This document shows positions 585-14,912 of a stretch of 24,685 nt of DNA, in pieces. The notes under the pieces were generated by a model. It saw nothing but the letters and a program-made list of their open reading frames with translations, made no database searches and had not been told where the DNA came from. Numbering within the stretch: the first letter of the stretch is position 1; the number at the start of each line of letters is the position of its first letter. The position numbers were made by a program, and so were the translations under genes. Source of the DNA: Candidatus Thorarchaeota archaeon (lineage in GTDB: Archaea; Asgardarchaeota; Thorarchaeia; Thorarchaeales; Thorarchaeaceae); assembly GCA_048884785.1 (NCBI GenBank), contig JBHLQM010000056.1, positions 1 to 24,685 on the forward strand. The letters are read 5' to 3'.

Positions 585-692
585 GCCTCGGTAGCTAAGT
601 GGTCTAAGGCGCCTGACTTGTATGTCAGGAGACCCTTGTCCTCTGATCAAGATATCAGGAGACCGCGAGTTCAAATCTCGCCCGGGGCTCCA
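585..692 (+). tRNA. tRNA-Thr(UGU) with 31-nt intron at 37/38 (623-653)
   Basis: Acceptor GCCTCGG/CCGGGGC, U73, encoded CCA. Anticodon stem CCTGA/TCAGG with TGT at 619-621. T arm GCGAG-TTCAAAT-CTCGC. Strict BHB: CTTG(617-620)/CAAG(648-651), bulges TAT and ATA. Confidence 0.93.
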
Positions 693-6388: not shown

Positions 6389-6498
6389 TGGTGGGCCGCG
6401 CCGGATTTGAACCAGCGACCTTCGATGCAAACGAGCATGAATCTCATTTGAATTCTCGGTGTAAACGAGACATCATAGCCGGGCTAGACTAGCGGCCC
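6389..6498 (-). tRNA. tRNA-Val(UAC) with 32-nt variable-loop intron at ~44/45 (6452-6421)
   Basis: GGGCCGC/GCGGCCC, A73, CCA. Intact anticodon arm TCTCG-TT-TAC-AC-CGAGA. Removing the insert restores variable loop AGGTC before GCTGG-TTCAAAT-CCGGC. Confidence 0.9.
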
Positions 6499-9520: not shown

Positions 9521-10558
9521 CTATTTTTCACACAATTCTCTCATTTTCCTCTCATTGGGCTTTTTGATAATTCCCTTGTCTGTGACGATTGCCGTGATAA
9601 GCTCCGGTGGAGTCATGTCAAATGCAGGATTGTACACCTTTGCTGTGGGTACAGTCACAGGTAGTCCATTTATGATACGTACTTCATCAGGATCTCTTTC
9701 TTCAATCTCTACTTCTTCTGGATTTGTCTTCATATCAACGGTGGACATTGGGGCAACACTGTAGAATGGAATATCATGATAATGAGCTACAATCGCCATA
9801 GTATACGTGCCAATCTTGTTGATGACATGACCAGTACGAAGAATCCTGTCAGCTCCGACCACACAGCAATCAACTCTTCCCTCTCGAAACACAGTTCCTA
9901 TCATACCATCGGTAATCAGTGTAGTATCAATACCATCTTCCATAAACTCGAAGACAGTCAGTCTTGAGCCCTGCTGACGTGGTCTCGTTTCAGCAGAATA
10001 GACCTTGATGTTTCCGTTATAGTGTTCATGTGCCACTCGTACAACTGCTCCAACTGTGCCTAAGTGAACAGTAGCCAACGACCCTGCATTGCAAATTGTC
10101 TGTATCGTATATCCTGGTTTGATTAACTCAAGTGCATTTTCACCAATTCTTCTGCACATACGAACATCTTCCTCAGCAATCTCTTTTGCCTCATCAATTA
10201 GCTGCCGAATTATATCATTGATACTGCCATCTGCTGATTTTAGGGTCTCAAGCATACGATTTGTAGCCCACGTCAGGTTCACAGCAGTTGGTCTTGTATT
10301 TAATACCTCAGCCGCACGTTCCAAGTAGTCCAGAAGTTCGTTCTTGCTAGTAGCTCTGCTCTCAAGGGCAGCCAACGCCATACCCATCCCTGCTGCGGCG
10401 CCTATCGCAGGAGCTCCCCTAATCTCCATCACCTTGATAGCTTGGGCCATTCTCTCGTGACTATCAGTAATAATATGCTCTGTTTTCAGTGGCAGTTTTG
10501 TCTGGTCAACAAAACGCACTCTATTACTGTCATTCATCCATTCAATTGTGCGAAACAT
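9521..10558 (-). CDS. mtnA: S-methyl-5-thioribose-1-phosphate isomerase (eIF-2B alpha/beta/delta family)
   Basis: DQTKLP, IRGAPAIG, TRPTAVNL, CNAGSLAT..GT, ETRP..QGSRLT, VGADRI, NKIGTY, YNPAFDMTP. Confidence 0.9.
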   Translation of the reverse strand: MFRTIEWMNDSNRVRFVDQTKLPLKTEHIITDSHERMAQAIKVMEIRGAPAIGAAAGMGMALAALESRATSKNELLDYLERAAEVLNTRPTAVNLTWATNRMLETLKSADGSINDIIRQLIDEAKEIAEEDVRMCRRIGENALELIKPGYTIQTICNAGSLATVHLGTVGAVVRVAHEHYNGNIKVYSAETRPRQQGSRLTVFEFMEDGIDTTLITDGMIGTVFREGRVDCCVVGADRILRTGHVINKIGTYTMAIVAHYHDIPFYSVAPMSTVDMKTNPEEVEIEERDPDEVRIINGLPVTVPTAKVYNPAFDMTPPELITAIVTDKGIIKKPNERKMRELCEK

Positions 10559-10562
10559 TGTA

Positions 10563-11060
10563 CTATCCTCGTATGTGATTTTTCAGAAGTTCATCAATCG
10601 TGCTAATAAGGTTCTGAGAAACCTTTTCGATCTCTGGTGTGAGCCCCTCTCCAAATAGAATACTCTGAGGCTGAACCCCAAGAAGAATGGTCCTTCCACC
10701 AGTTTGTTCTTCCAGATACTGCATAAGGAATGATAGAGGCATACTATGTGTACTGATAGCAATTCCGCCTATTCTATCCTTGGTGACCAATTCAATGTGA
10801 CCCACTGGCTTTTTCATATCTGCTGCATCAACCATTATCACTCGTTCTGCACCAAACTCCGCCAAAGGACGGGCAAAAGCCTCTGGTACCGAGCCGACAC
10901 ATTCTATGAAAATGTCAGGGTGCCTCGTGCTCAACCCATTGACGATGTAAGGTCCAAGACCATCATCCGTTCTCAAGTCGTTCCCAAGTCCCAATATTGC
11001 AATCTTCTTTGAACCTGAGATGAAGTCTTTCAGTTGGTGCACAATTTTGGGGTCGGTCAC
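10563..11060 (-). CDS. hycI: HycI-type hydrogenase maturation endopeptidase
   Basis: ILGLGNDLRTDDGLG, G.VPE, VDAAD, STHSMPL, LGVQP....FGEGLT. Start ambiguous (GTG 11060 or ATG 11099). Confidence 0.85.
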   Translation of the reverse strand: MTDPKIVHQLKDFISGSKKIAILGLGNDLRTDDGLGPYIVNGLSTRHPDIFIECVGSVPEAFARPLAEFGAERVIMVDAADMKKPVGHIELVTKDRIGGIAISTHSMPLSFLMQYLEEQTGGRTILLGVQPQSILFGEGLTPEIEKVSQNLISTIDELLKNHIRG

Positions 11061-11158
11061 ATCAAACGACCTGTCGTATCCGACTATATCTCTTATCATT
11101 GGACACGTCGAAGAGTTTTTCACAATTGTACACCGCGCCTACATCTGTAGGCGAATGC

Positions 11159-11806
11159 ATGTTGTCTGATCAAGAGAGGAACTCCGAGTTTCCTTTGGAA
11201 TCATCTGATGAAGAACTCGATGAATTTGTTGATGAAGAACCCGAGGAAGAGGAGGAACCGTCAAGTGCAATTTTCAGAGATGAGAAGGGCTACGTTGGAA
11301 AAGACGATGCTGATAGAATATCCCAACAGGGATTCTATGGATCTCGACTTGATGATGGCACATTACAACTTGAGCCTGTGGAATTGCTACATTTACTAGA
11401 GCGAAAGAGAATTACATTGGCAAACGCAGCAGGTGAAACAATTGGTTCCGCACATATTATCAAGGAGCTACTTGCCAAAGACCCCGATCTCTGGATACGT
11501 TATCTTGTGTTTCGTGATTTACGAAGTAGGGGATATGCAGTACGCCAAGGATTTGGGAGTGGAATTGGATTTCGAGTATACAGTCGTGGAGAACGGCCTG
11601 GATCGTCAACTGCAAGCCAGCTAATCTATGTGCTAAAAGAAGGAGTCCCCATATCACTACAGGAACTTGATGCAGTAACAGAAACCGCCTTATCGGCACG
11701 CAAGTTTCTCTTGTTTGCATTGGTAGACCAAAATGGAGAAGTAAATTATTACCGAGTTGCCCAAGCAACACTTCGTGACCTTGGAGGGAATACTAATAAT
11801 GAATGA
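11159..11806 (+). CDS. endA: tRNA-intron (splicing) endonuclease subunit, probably non-catalytic beta type
   Basis: [23 protein letters not shown]...G..FRVY and [18 protein letters not shown]. The catalytic His position is Thr. Confidence 0.88.
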
Positions 11807-13064
11807 TGATTGGATGAATGAAGATGAGGAGCTAGTCAAGCTAGATGCCTTTTTCGATGAACATACAATGAGTGTACACCTAATAGAGAATAATCCTCCT
11901 CGTGCAAAACGCGGTGCACCTGGCGAGTGGGCATTAGTAGAACTGTCAGAAAGAATTCTTACACAAGAGGAACTTGAGATTCTGGCCGAAGCGATAATTG
12001 AAAGCGCTCGGAACGATCGACAATCATTCATTGAAATTGAGGAGGACGGAGCTGCTGTAGTGCAGCTAAGAAATCTCCGCATAGCAATAGCCATGCCTCC
12101 ATTTGCAGATAAATTTGAGATTTCAGCGATTAAACCCATCAAGAAGCTATCAATTGAAGAGTATCATTTGAGTCCAAAACTTACGAACCGACTTGAAACG
12201 AGGGCCGAAGGAATTCTAGTCACTGGCTCTCCTGGGTCTGGAAAATCGACATTTTCAGCTGCTCTTGCTGAGTTTTATAGCAAAAAGGGCAATATCGTAA
12301 AAACACTTGAGCAACCCAGAGACCTCCAAGTATCAGAAGACATCGTACAGTATTCACCTCTTGATGGCAGCATGGAAAAGGCTGCTGACATTCTGCTACT
12401 TGTTCGTCCTGACTATGTAATATATGATGAATTGAGAAAGAACAGTGATTTTGAGGCATATTCGGATTTGAGGGCTGCTGGAGTTGGTATGGTGGGAGTG
12501 GTCCATGCTGGGTCATCTATAGATGCCATTCAAAGACTGATACTGCGAGGAAGAGTCGAACTTGGTCAGCTACCAAGCACAGTAGACACGGTCATACATA
12601 TTGAGGCTGGCAAAGTTGCCAAGGTTTCCTCACTAACTCTTAAAGTAAAACTTCCAACAGGTATGAGTAGCTCCCAAAAGGACCTTGCCAGACCTGTAGT
12701 TGAAGTCCGTGATTTTGAGCTTGGTGTACTTGAGTATGAGATATTCACCTTTGGTGGAGAAAAAGTCGTTGTACCCGTTCGTGGAGGCCCGCGCGTAACG
12801 CCAGTTGGTAGGGAACCACGCAGAGGTCGTCCAGGAGAAACAGTTCCTGTAAAGGTCAGCTACTCCAAGAAGAAAGTGACAATCTATGCAGGACAAAAAT
12901 ACGCAAAACAAAGGATGGAGCTGTTCGCTGATGATGCCTACCTAACAACCACCGTCATTGGACGAAATGGCGAGAGTTCGATTCGTATTAAAACTCGTCA
13001 GGGTGCAATGATTGTAGATGCAATGGAAGAGGGTGCAGCTATAACAGCAAAGATTGCAGAATAG
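11799..13064 (+). CDS. PINA-like (PilT/VirB11-class) P-loop ATPase lacking the N-terminal PIN domain
   Basis: [11 protein letters not shown]...AKRGAPGEW, Walker [47 protein letters not shown]...[12 protein letters not shown] overlaps the endA stop by 8 nt. Confidence 0.85.
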
Positions 13065-13110
13065 AAACTGCAAAACCTTTAACAACGAACGGACGACTCC
13101 GCTGACTCGT

Positions 13111-13214
13111 GGGCCCGTTGCCTAGCCAGGATAGGGCACCAGCCTCCTATCAAAGCGTTCTTCCACTTGGGAGACAGTTGGTTTCCGTGAGTTCAAATCT
13201 CACCGGGCCCGCCA
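13111..13214 (+). tRNA. tRNA-Arg(CCU) with 26-nt intron at 37/38 (13150-13175)
   Basis: GGGCCCG/CGGGCCC, G73, CCA. CCAGC-CT-CCT-A[intron]A-GTTGG. Strict BHB CTCC/GGAG with bulges TAT and ACA. Confidence 0.93.
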
Positions 13215-14805: not shown

Positions 14806-14912
14806 CGGGACGTAGCTCAATAGTGCGCTGCATCAGTAGCCACTGAGAAATCTGGCAGAGCTATGGACTGTAGATCCATTGGTTGCCGGTTCAAATCCGG
14901 CCGTCCCGACCA
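14806..14912 (+). tRNA. tRNA-Tyr(GUA) with ~30-nt D-loop intron at ~15/16 (about 14821-14850)
   Basis: C1:G72 acceptor CGGGACG/CGTCCCG, A73, CCA. Intact ATGGA-CT-GTA-GA-TCCAT. D arm GCTC-AA[insert]TCTGGCA-GAGC. The insert pairs CTCA/TGAG and GTG/CAC around an ATA bulge. Confidence 0.92.

Follow-up and report, generated by a model that had tools for sequence, protein, structure and literature searches.

PINA is a near-universal archaeal ATPase whose cellular role is unsettled; it has been reported to be essential in Sulfolobus islandicus and dispensable in S. acidocaldarius. In the S. islandicus protein, SisPINA (PDB 5f4h and 5yww), the KH domain binds Hjm and Hjc, and mutation of the hexamer-interface residues R147, I199 and R206 yields a monomer (PMC6061704). 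Euryarchaeal and Asgard PIN-ATPase-KH proteins of ~600-640 amino acids (aa) are classed as PRK13764/COG1855. The splicing endonuclease EndA of crenarchaea and nanoarchaea (PDB 2zyz, 3p1z and 3iey) is an (alpha-beta)2 assembly of two paralogues, of which one has the Tyr-His-Lys triad and the other lacks the His; it is with this type of assembly that broad (non-canonical) intron specificity is associated. An (alpha-beta)2 EndA has also been inferred for most Asgard genomes, the tRNA genes of which are heavily interrupted (bioRxiv 10.64898/2026.10.13.758758). Here, we analysed a 24,685-nucleotide (nt) stretch of DNA from a Candidatus Thorarchaeota archaeon of the Thorarchaeaceae (contig JBHLQM010000056.1; hereafter, the window), which is contig C56 of a 3.6-Mb archaeal metagenome-assembled genome (MAG) that is 91% complete. 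The nearest relatives of its proteins are annotated as Candidatus Thorarchaeota, and a search for sequencing runs listed DNA runs only, from sediment, soil and estuary. In the window, a gene for an EndA beta subunit (endA-beta) is overlapped by a gene for a PINA-family ATPase that lacks both the PIN and the KH domain. What is new is an architectural variant of the known PINA family, set within an operon that extends across the Asgard archaea. The two genes are laid out as follows.

11159..11806, + strand: endA-beta, 215 aa from ATG 11159 (alternative start TTG 11099), with an acidic N-terminal tail at about residues 1-35 (Pfam, TIGR00324)
11783..11806, + strand: coupling junction with GGAGGG, the ATPase ATG and the endA stop TGA, ATGAATGA, 8-nt overlap (read from the sequence)
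11799..12782, + strand: PINA-family ATPase residues 1-328, N-terminal domain and PilT/VirB11-class core, without PIN (PRK13764, 5f4h, structure model)
12783..12833, + strand: Arg/Pro/Gly linker, residues 329-345, at the KH site of full-length PINA (alignment, model confidence)
12834..13064, + strand: C-terminal beta-rich domain, residues 346-421, and stop codon (PRK13764 positions 539-612)

The ATPase start codon (ATG 11799-11801) lies upstream of the endA stop (TGA 11804-11806) in the 8-nt overlap, and a Shine-Dalgarno-like GGAGGG is located at 11783-11788, 10 nt 5' of this ATG; an earlier note on this DNA, made from the sequence alone, had read the overlap in the same way. The start Met aligned with the starts of orthologues in other genera, and the whole open reading frame (ORF; 11799-13064) encodes 421 aa. 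The protein scored 537 bits against NCBIfam PRK13764 (cut-off 340), matching positions 134/135-451 and, in the same frame, 539-612 (E 4e-6) of the 613 in the profile. Against the PINA equivalog NF053733 it reached 379.7 bits, below the cut-off of 800, over profile positions 114-432 of 502. The match to SisPINA 5f4h had an E of 4e-95 over chain residues 125-439, with ~47% identity over 313-315 residues. An AlphaFold2 (AF2) model with a predicted local distance difference test (pLDDT) score of 81 also returned 5f4h as the top Foldseek match (E 1e-39, TM 0.63), and the Pfam matches were T2SSE and generic P-loop families. Walker A (143-151), the Walker B/Asp box DYVIYDELR (205-213) and the His box (H236) were invariant in a 33-sequence alignment; the earlier note had described these motifs as intact. 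The counterparts of the SisPINA interface residues R147, I199 and R206 are R35, V87 and R94, of which R94 was invariant and V87 nearly invariant. A separate full-length PINA had been proposed as a point to check; only a single PRK13764 match was present in the 91%-complete genome, and the window protein is thus its sole PINA orthologue, reduced by the two domains.

The loss of PIN is apparent at the N-terminus. Only 17 residues precede the post-PIN segment, so that the protein starts close to where it had been said to begin, and the endA overlap leaves no room upstream for a PIN domain. No Pfam match to PIN was found in the ATPase; the profile match from position 134/135 and the 5f4h match from residue 125 therefore indicate that a PIN domain of ~130 residues is missing. 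A single-sequence search for a detached PIN found nothing and was run without a control, and a profile built from ten Asgard PINA PIN domains was used instead. This profile gave no match at E ≤1 in the window genome or in three other PIN-less members of the family, and the positive control, a genome of the same family with a PIN-bearing PINA, was matched at 1e-54, indicating that the domain was lost rather than split off. In the PIN-bearing Asgard PINAs the acidic active-site residues D11, E43/E45, D97 and D115 are retained, so that the nuclease lost from the Thorarchaeaceae was seemingly functional.

The KH domain is likewise absent: Pfam detected none at E ≤1 in the C-terminal 94 aa or at E ≤0.01 in the whole ATPase. 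Positions 451-539 of PRK13764 are skipped, and in full-length Asgard PINAs the Pfam KH_1/KH_2 matches fall exactly in that segment and PIN falls at the N-terminus. In the alignment, a gap of ~70-90 columns in the window protein faces the KH domain of KH-bearing Asgard PINAs. Model confidence fell below a pLDDT of 50 at residues 330-341, consistent with a disordered linker that is followed by a beta domain. The Arg/Pro/Gly linker noted earlier at the KH site is thus present, but the description had overlooked that the last ~76 residues are a conserved beta domain and not linker. This domain was modelled with a pLDDT of 94 as seven strands and one helix, which is not a KH fold, and it is conserved in PINAs of Asgard archaea, methanogens, halophiles, DPANN and TACK. 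A Foldseek search against the PDB gave no convincing match to its fold (best E 1.7e-3, CalpT-like chain 8b0u_C), and VIA-align wide returned mixed small beta-barrel and beta-sandwich matches at Z ≤5.0, including the SETX/Upf1 barrel.

The window ATPase shares with SisPINA an orthologous N-domain and PilT/VirB11-class core, the hexamer-interface arginines, Walker A/B and the His box, but it differs in lacking PIN and the Hjm/Hjc-binding KH, in carrying at its C-terminus the additional beta domain that is typical of proteins of the PRK13764 type, in falling below the NF053733 cut-off (380 versus 800 bits), in being encoded in a genome in which Hjc was undetected and in the coupling of its gene to endA-beta. 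It belongs by cut-off to the same family as the full-length PRK13764/COG1855 proteins and has the same core and C-terminal domain, but it misses positions 1-134 (PIN) and 451-539 (KH). Pfam PF01870 found no Hjc in the window genome. There was likewise no match in 40 of the 43 genomes of the family (the other three gave partial matches), in family f9 (40 genomes) or in families f12, f16 and f22; other Asgard families were matched at 1e-20 to 1e-28. A correlation of KH loss with Hjc loss was considered and dropped, as the KH-bearing families f16 and f22 have no Hjc and the KH-less families f3 and f20 have it.

Across at least 15 Thorarchaeaceae genera the ATPase is 74-89% identical, compared with 51-71% for EndA-beta, and nearly all genomes of the family keep its reading frame uninterrupted, a pattern of strong purifying selection. 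In one family member (L026, G016:C47), a single in-frame TGA lies between the ATPase core and the C-terminal domain, which may reflect a sequencing error, pseudogenization or a split of the gene.

The upstream ORF matched Pfam tRNA_int_endo_N (PF02778; 1.4e-11) and tRNA_int_endo (PF01974; 3.8e-19) and passed the TIGR00324 cut-off of 59.6 with 71.5 bits; its best PDB match was 5x89 (M. kandleri EndA). Alignment with M. jannaschii EndA (1a79) revealed Ala in place of the catalytic (general-acid) His (TAS versus EHS), with the Tyr (RVY) and Lys (SARK) retained, and the same Ala occurred in all 33 aligned Asgard EndA-beta orthologues. A second EndA paralogue is encoded on contig C35 (21307-21561) and scored 111.7 bits, compared with ~71 bits for the window copy; its ORF of 187 aa has Tyr, His and Lys all present (AVY...DHAP...SVKKK). 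Because of the Ala at the catalytic His and this paralogue with the complete triad, the window EndA is assigned as a beta subunit, predicted to be catalytically dead and structural in an (alpha-beta)2 splicing endonuclease, which agrees with its earlier typing as a beta copy. The likeness to the crenarchaeal/nanoarchaeal enzyme lies in the two paralogues, with and without the His. Unlike that enzyme, the window beta subunit is full length, with N and C domains and an acidic N-terminal tail that alignment showed to be recurrent among Asgard EndA-beta proteins, and its gene stands in an operon with PINA, a pairing that was not seen in the non-Asgard loci sampled. On contig C35, the alpha gene is preceded by a 226-aa ORF and followed by 106-aa and 290-aa ORFs, the last of which is rich in Cys and charged residues.

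The arrangement is a lineage trait and not a peculiarity of the window. A divergent hycI-like gene, endA-beta and the ATPase gene occur in this order in all 24 genomes of the family that were examined, with relatives of the locus including Thorarchaeota SMTZ1-45 and OWC3. When 6-kb flanks from 40 Asgard genomes of 22 families were evaluated, 9 families had endA-beta directly upstream and on the same strand, either overlapping or at a distance of ≤107 nt, and 5 more had it ~0.7-2 kb away; in the remaining 8 of the 22, the available flanks did not show it. The earlier note had named non-conservation of the adjacency as grounds for abandoning its proposal, and the immediate pair in 9 of 22 families indicates conservation. 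In most Asgard loci the two ORFs abut or overlap. The immediate pair was found in Thor, Loki, Heimdall and other lineages, including named Loki-type, Harpocratesius and Heimdall MAGs, whatever the PINA architecture and mostly with PIN-bearing or full-length proteins. The linkage therefore predates the domain losses, and the suggestion that it is a stripped motor that is linked to endA does not hold. EndA-beta identity is 51-71% across Thorarchaeaceae genera and falls to 28-40% to the window copy outside the family. In addition, the pair persists in Heimdall-type families without hycI.

Outside Asgard, a hidden Markov model of EndA found endA directly upstream of PINA in none of ~60 informative archaeal PINA loci. 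The model works outside Asgard, since it recognized the EndA of Methanobacterium and Nitrosopolaris at E ~1e-42 to 1e-44, in loci where endA lies ≤4 kb downstream of PINA. The pair is therefore an Asgard-specific trait, by which PINA is tied to a structural splicing-endonuclease subunit across the phylum that is nearest to eukaryotes; no such tie was seen elsewhere. The literature searched contained no paper linking EndA with PINA/COG1855 or describing a PIN-less PINA in Asgard archaea, and this Asgard-wide operon of endA-beta and PINA is apparently unreported so far.

PINA itself is modular in Asgard archaea. Of 201 Asgard genomes, 173 gave a PRK13764 match, and the matching proteins fall into four architectures.

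PIN-ATPase-KH-CTD (CTD, C-terminal domain), ~605-640 aa, for example in the family holding Heimdallarchaeum
PIN-ATPase-CTD, ~540-570 aa, in many families and in one genus of the window's own family
ATPase-KH-CTD, ~475-500 aa, in three families
ATPase-CTD, ~421-427 aa, in the rest of the window's family

Intermediate forms, in which only PIN or only KH has been lost, thus occur in other Asgard lineages, and KH is also absent in many other Asgard families; the window form can be read from these sequences as one end of a mosaic of domain losses. The gene appears to have been lost altogether in two families. PRK13764 gave one weak match among 19 genomes of family f12 and none among three of family f21 (the PINA-less genomes include G035, G065 and G080 of f12 and G066 and G074 of f21; loci L160 and L162). 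It has been stated in the literature that every sequenced archaeon has a homologue of PINA, and these two families appear to contradict the statement. Both retain alpha-like and beta-like EndA, the latter with its acidic tail, and in both the hycI/endA-beta locus is intact, with PINA missing from it. Among long PINA forms we observed fusions of HAD-hydrolase, PIN and ATPase, with or without KH, in Candidatus Caldarchaeum (P0127-P0148), and one protein (P0149) with CDC48_N-type domains (PF02359/PF02933) and T2SSE. Many PINAs bear inteins or LAGLIDADG, in Thermococcales (Thermococcus P0121-P0126), Nanoarchaeota and others.

The PINA-less families also bear on whether splicing depends on the motor. 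As a proxy for intron load, we determined how many Rfam tRNA matches exceed 90 nt in five genomes, a rough measure on a tiny sample that was uncorrected for kinship. Such matches made up 18 of 24 and 10 of 23 in two PINA-less genomes, 9 of 30 in the window genome (stripped PINA, paired with endA-beta), 14 of 40 in a Heimdallarchaeum-type genome (full-length PINA, paired) and 6 of 11 in a genome whose PINA is not adjacent to endA-beta. This five-genome comparison speaks against the link to intron load for which the earlier note had proposed a test, as PINA-less families with both EndAs carry equal or higher shares of intron-length tRNAs. Because these families keep alpha and beta EndA together with intron-length tRNAs, heavy tRNA interruption is handled without PINA, which is dispensable for splicing.

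Taken together, we favour, with confidence that is about evenly balanced, the view that the window holds the Thorarchaeaceae version of an operon from early Asgard archaea, in which endA-beta is followed by a translationally coupled, reduced PINA orthologue that is likely a motor, the two being co-expressed housekeeping genes. The operon would have been inherited from early Asgard archaea, and a lineage-specific deletion would then have removed the PIN nuclease domain and brought the ATPase core flush against endA. Given that the catalytic motifs, the hexamer-interface residues and the beta domain are kept and that the protein is under strong purifying selection, the ATPase is most likely still functional as a hexameric ring motor that is driven by ATP and acts on branched or structured nucleic acid, although for the window protein hexamer formation and motor activity are predictions from its sequence. 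The linkage would reflect joint expression of two housekeeping genes for nucleic-acid processing and not a machine dedicated to splicing, since splicing proceeds in the PINA-less Asgard lineages. If PINA does not act on RNA with EndA, the locus would be a case of reductive domain evolution within a frozen operon.

Several observations weigh against so modest a view of the linkage. The overlapping or abutting pair has been kept across Thor, Loki and Heimdall despite EndA-beta identities of 28-40%, which is more than inertia usually preserves, and it survives where the neighbouring hycI adjacency has been lost. It is specific to Asgard archaea, where it coincides with heavy tRNA interruption (bioRxiv 10.64898/2026.10.13.758758). 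The DNA-repair setting known for PINA is poorly represented in the Thorarchaeaceae, in which the KH domain for the contacts with Hjm and Hjc (PMC6061704) is gone and Hjc was undetected in the window genome and in 40 of the 43 genomes of the family. Several intron-bearing tRNAs are present in the window. Cold sensitivity is common for RNA and ribosome-biogenesis factors. S. acidocaldarius without pina is viable but cold-sensitive (PMC8775617). These points would all fit a possible, though doubtful, alternative in which PINA serves the splicing endonuclease of Asgard archaea as an accessory motor that binds the (alpha-beta)2 enzyme, perhaps via EndA-beta, and remodels precursors by ATP hydrolysis so that bulge-helix-bulge (BHB) motifs form, helpful but not essential. 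Its substrates would be pre-tRNAs with several or non-canonical introns, or BHB-bearing pre-rRNA stems, and the Thorarchaeaceae form would be a version trimmed to the task. However, the PINA-less families with alpha and beta EndA have equal or higher shares of intron-length tRNAs, the adjacency was unseen in 8 of the 22 sampled families although they have PINA, and the biochemistry of the family has been obtained on DNA junctions only. No EndA-PINA fusion was found among 55 long PINA homologues (738-2105 aa), a weak negative because only word-sharing candidates were scored. The hycI-endA-beta adjacency is equally long-lived without a functional rationale, and lasting synteny in this block cannot therefore be taken to prove a function. 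A co-fold prediction of EndA-beta with the ATPase, made with 33-row alignments, scored 0.01-0.02 against a mark of 0.32 and counts neither way on binding. Nothing tested shows participation of the motor in splicing; the gene pair, for its part, is conserved across Asgard genomes. The more specific claim, that Asgard PINA is a non-essential ATP-driven RNA remodeller bound to (alpha-beta)2 EndA by way of the beta subunit and aiding BHB formation in heavily interrupted pre-tRNAs or pre-rRNA, with the Thorarchaeaceae enzyme as a minimal endonuclease-motor form and a prokaryotic functional analogue of nucleoside triphosphatase (NTPase)-assisted TSEN, we consider unlikely. If PINA did act on RNA with EndA, the family would be reassigned, at least in Asgard archaea, from recombination to RNA processing and would provide a prokaryotic precedent for NTPase-assisted tRNA splicing. 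The analogy drawn earlier with eukaryotic TSEN-CLP1 is conceptual, in that a P-loop NTPase accompanies a heterotetrameric splicing endonuclease with catalytic and structural subunits. It can be functional only, since there is no homology: CLP1 has a polynucleotide kinase-type P-loop, whereas the window ATPase is a ring motor of the secretion-ATPase class with a PilT/VirB11-like fold and no CLP1 family among its Pfam matches, and the association here is genomic only.

That endA-beta sits exactly where the PIN-coding segment was deleted, and is translationally coupled to what remains, hints at another possible role for EndA-beta, which would replace the lost domain in trans or act as an adaptor in its stead. 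Its dead-nuclease fold and acidic tail would dock on the PIN-less motor and regulate or target it on DNA or RNA junctions, apart from tRNA splicing; the apparent loss of an active nuclease, judged from the acidic residues kept in PIN-bearing Asgard PINAs, and the recurrence of the acidic tail in Asgard EndA-beta would be in keeping with this. We regard it as improbable, because the pair already exists with PIN-bearing PINA, so that EndA-beta did not arrive as a replacement; moreover, EndA-beta and its acidic tail are retained in the PINA-less families. As two of the four domains have been lost, the truncated ATPase might alternatively be viewed as a decaying, functionless remnant, but the 74-89% identity across at least 15 genera with all catalytic motifs invariant effectively refutes this. 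The frame that is intact in nearly all genomes, the confident AF2 model and the status of the protein as the sole PINA copy of the genome argue in the same direction, leaving such decay with hardly any likelihood.

The pair is flanked in the window by two further features.

13111..13214, + strand: tRNA-Arg(CCU), CCA encoded, with an intron at 13150-13175 (Rfam, ARAGORN)
10563..11123, - strand: HycI-like protease gene, divergent from endA-beta (Pfam HycI 3.1e-14), a neighbour by synteny without functional implication

The tRNA gene, described earlier as lying 46 nt past the ATPase stop, was confirmed at that distance, with an Rfam score of 44.1 bits and an ARAGORN call, made with introns allowed, of Arg(cct) i(40,26). 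Its 26-nt intron is at the canonical 37/38 position, and a central helix CUCC/GGAG with a 3' bulge ACA was present in the fold. Across the family, tRNA-Arg(CCU) is found ~50 nt 3' of the ATPase gene, and we infer that it is a syntenic neighbour. The 37/38 intron of the family gene (22-27 nt) occurs in some genera but is lacking at the orthologous loci of several others, and the intron-bearing tRNA is therefore not a conserved part of the system, in which it had been included. The intron is found at loci L006, L011-L015, L026 and L076 and is missing at L005, L009, L010, L019, L020, L022, L035, L036 and L079; such a presence/absence polymorphism at a fixed locus could serve the dating of gain or loss.

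On the other side of the pair, the HycI-like gene forms one block with an MtnA/eIF-2B-family gene (9521-10558, - strand). In many Asgard families, those that have lost PINA among them, this block divergently adjoins endA-beta, with no evident functional reason. Other tRNA genes in the window are located at 585-689 (+ strand, 105 nt), at 6392-6498 (- strand, 107 nt) and at 14836-14902 (+ strand), the last covering Rfam model positions 7-64 only; all three are consistent with the presence of non-canonical introns.

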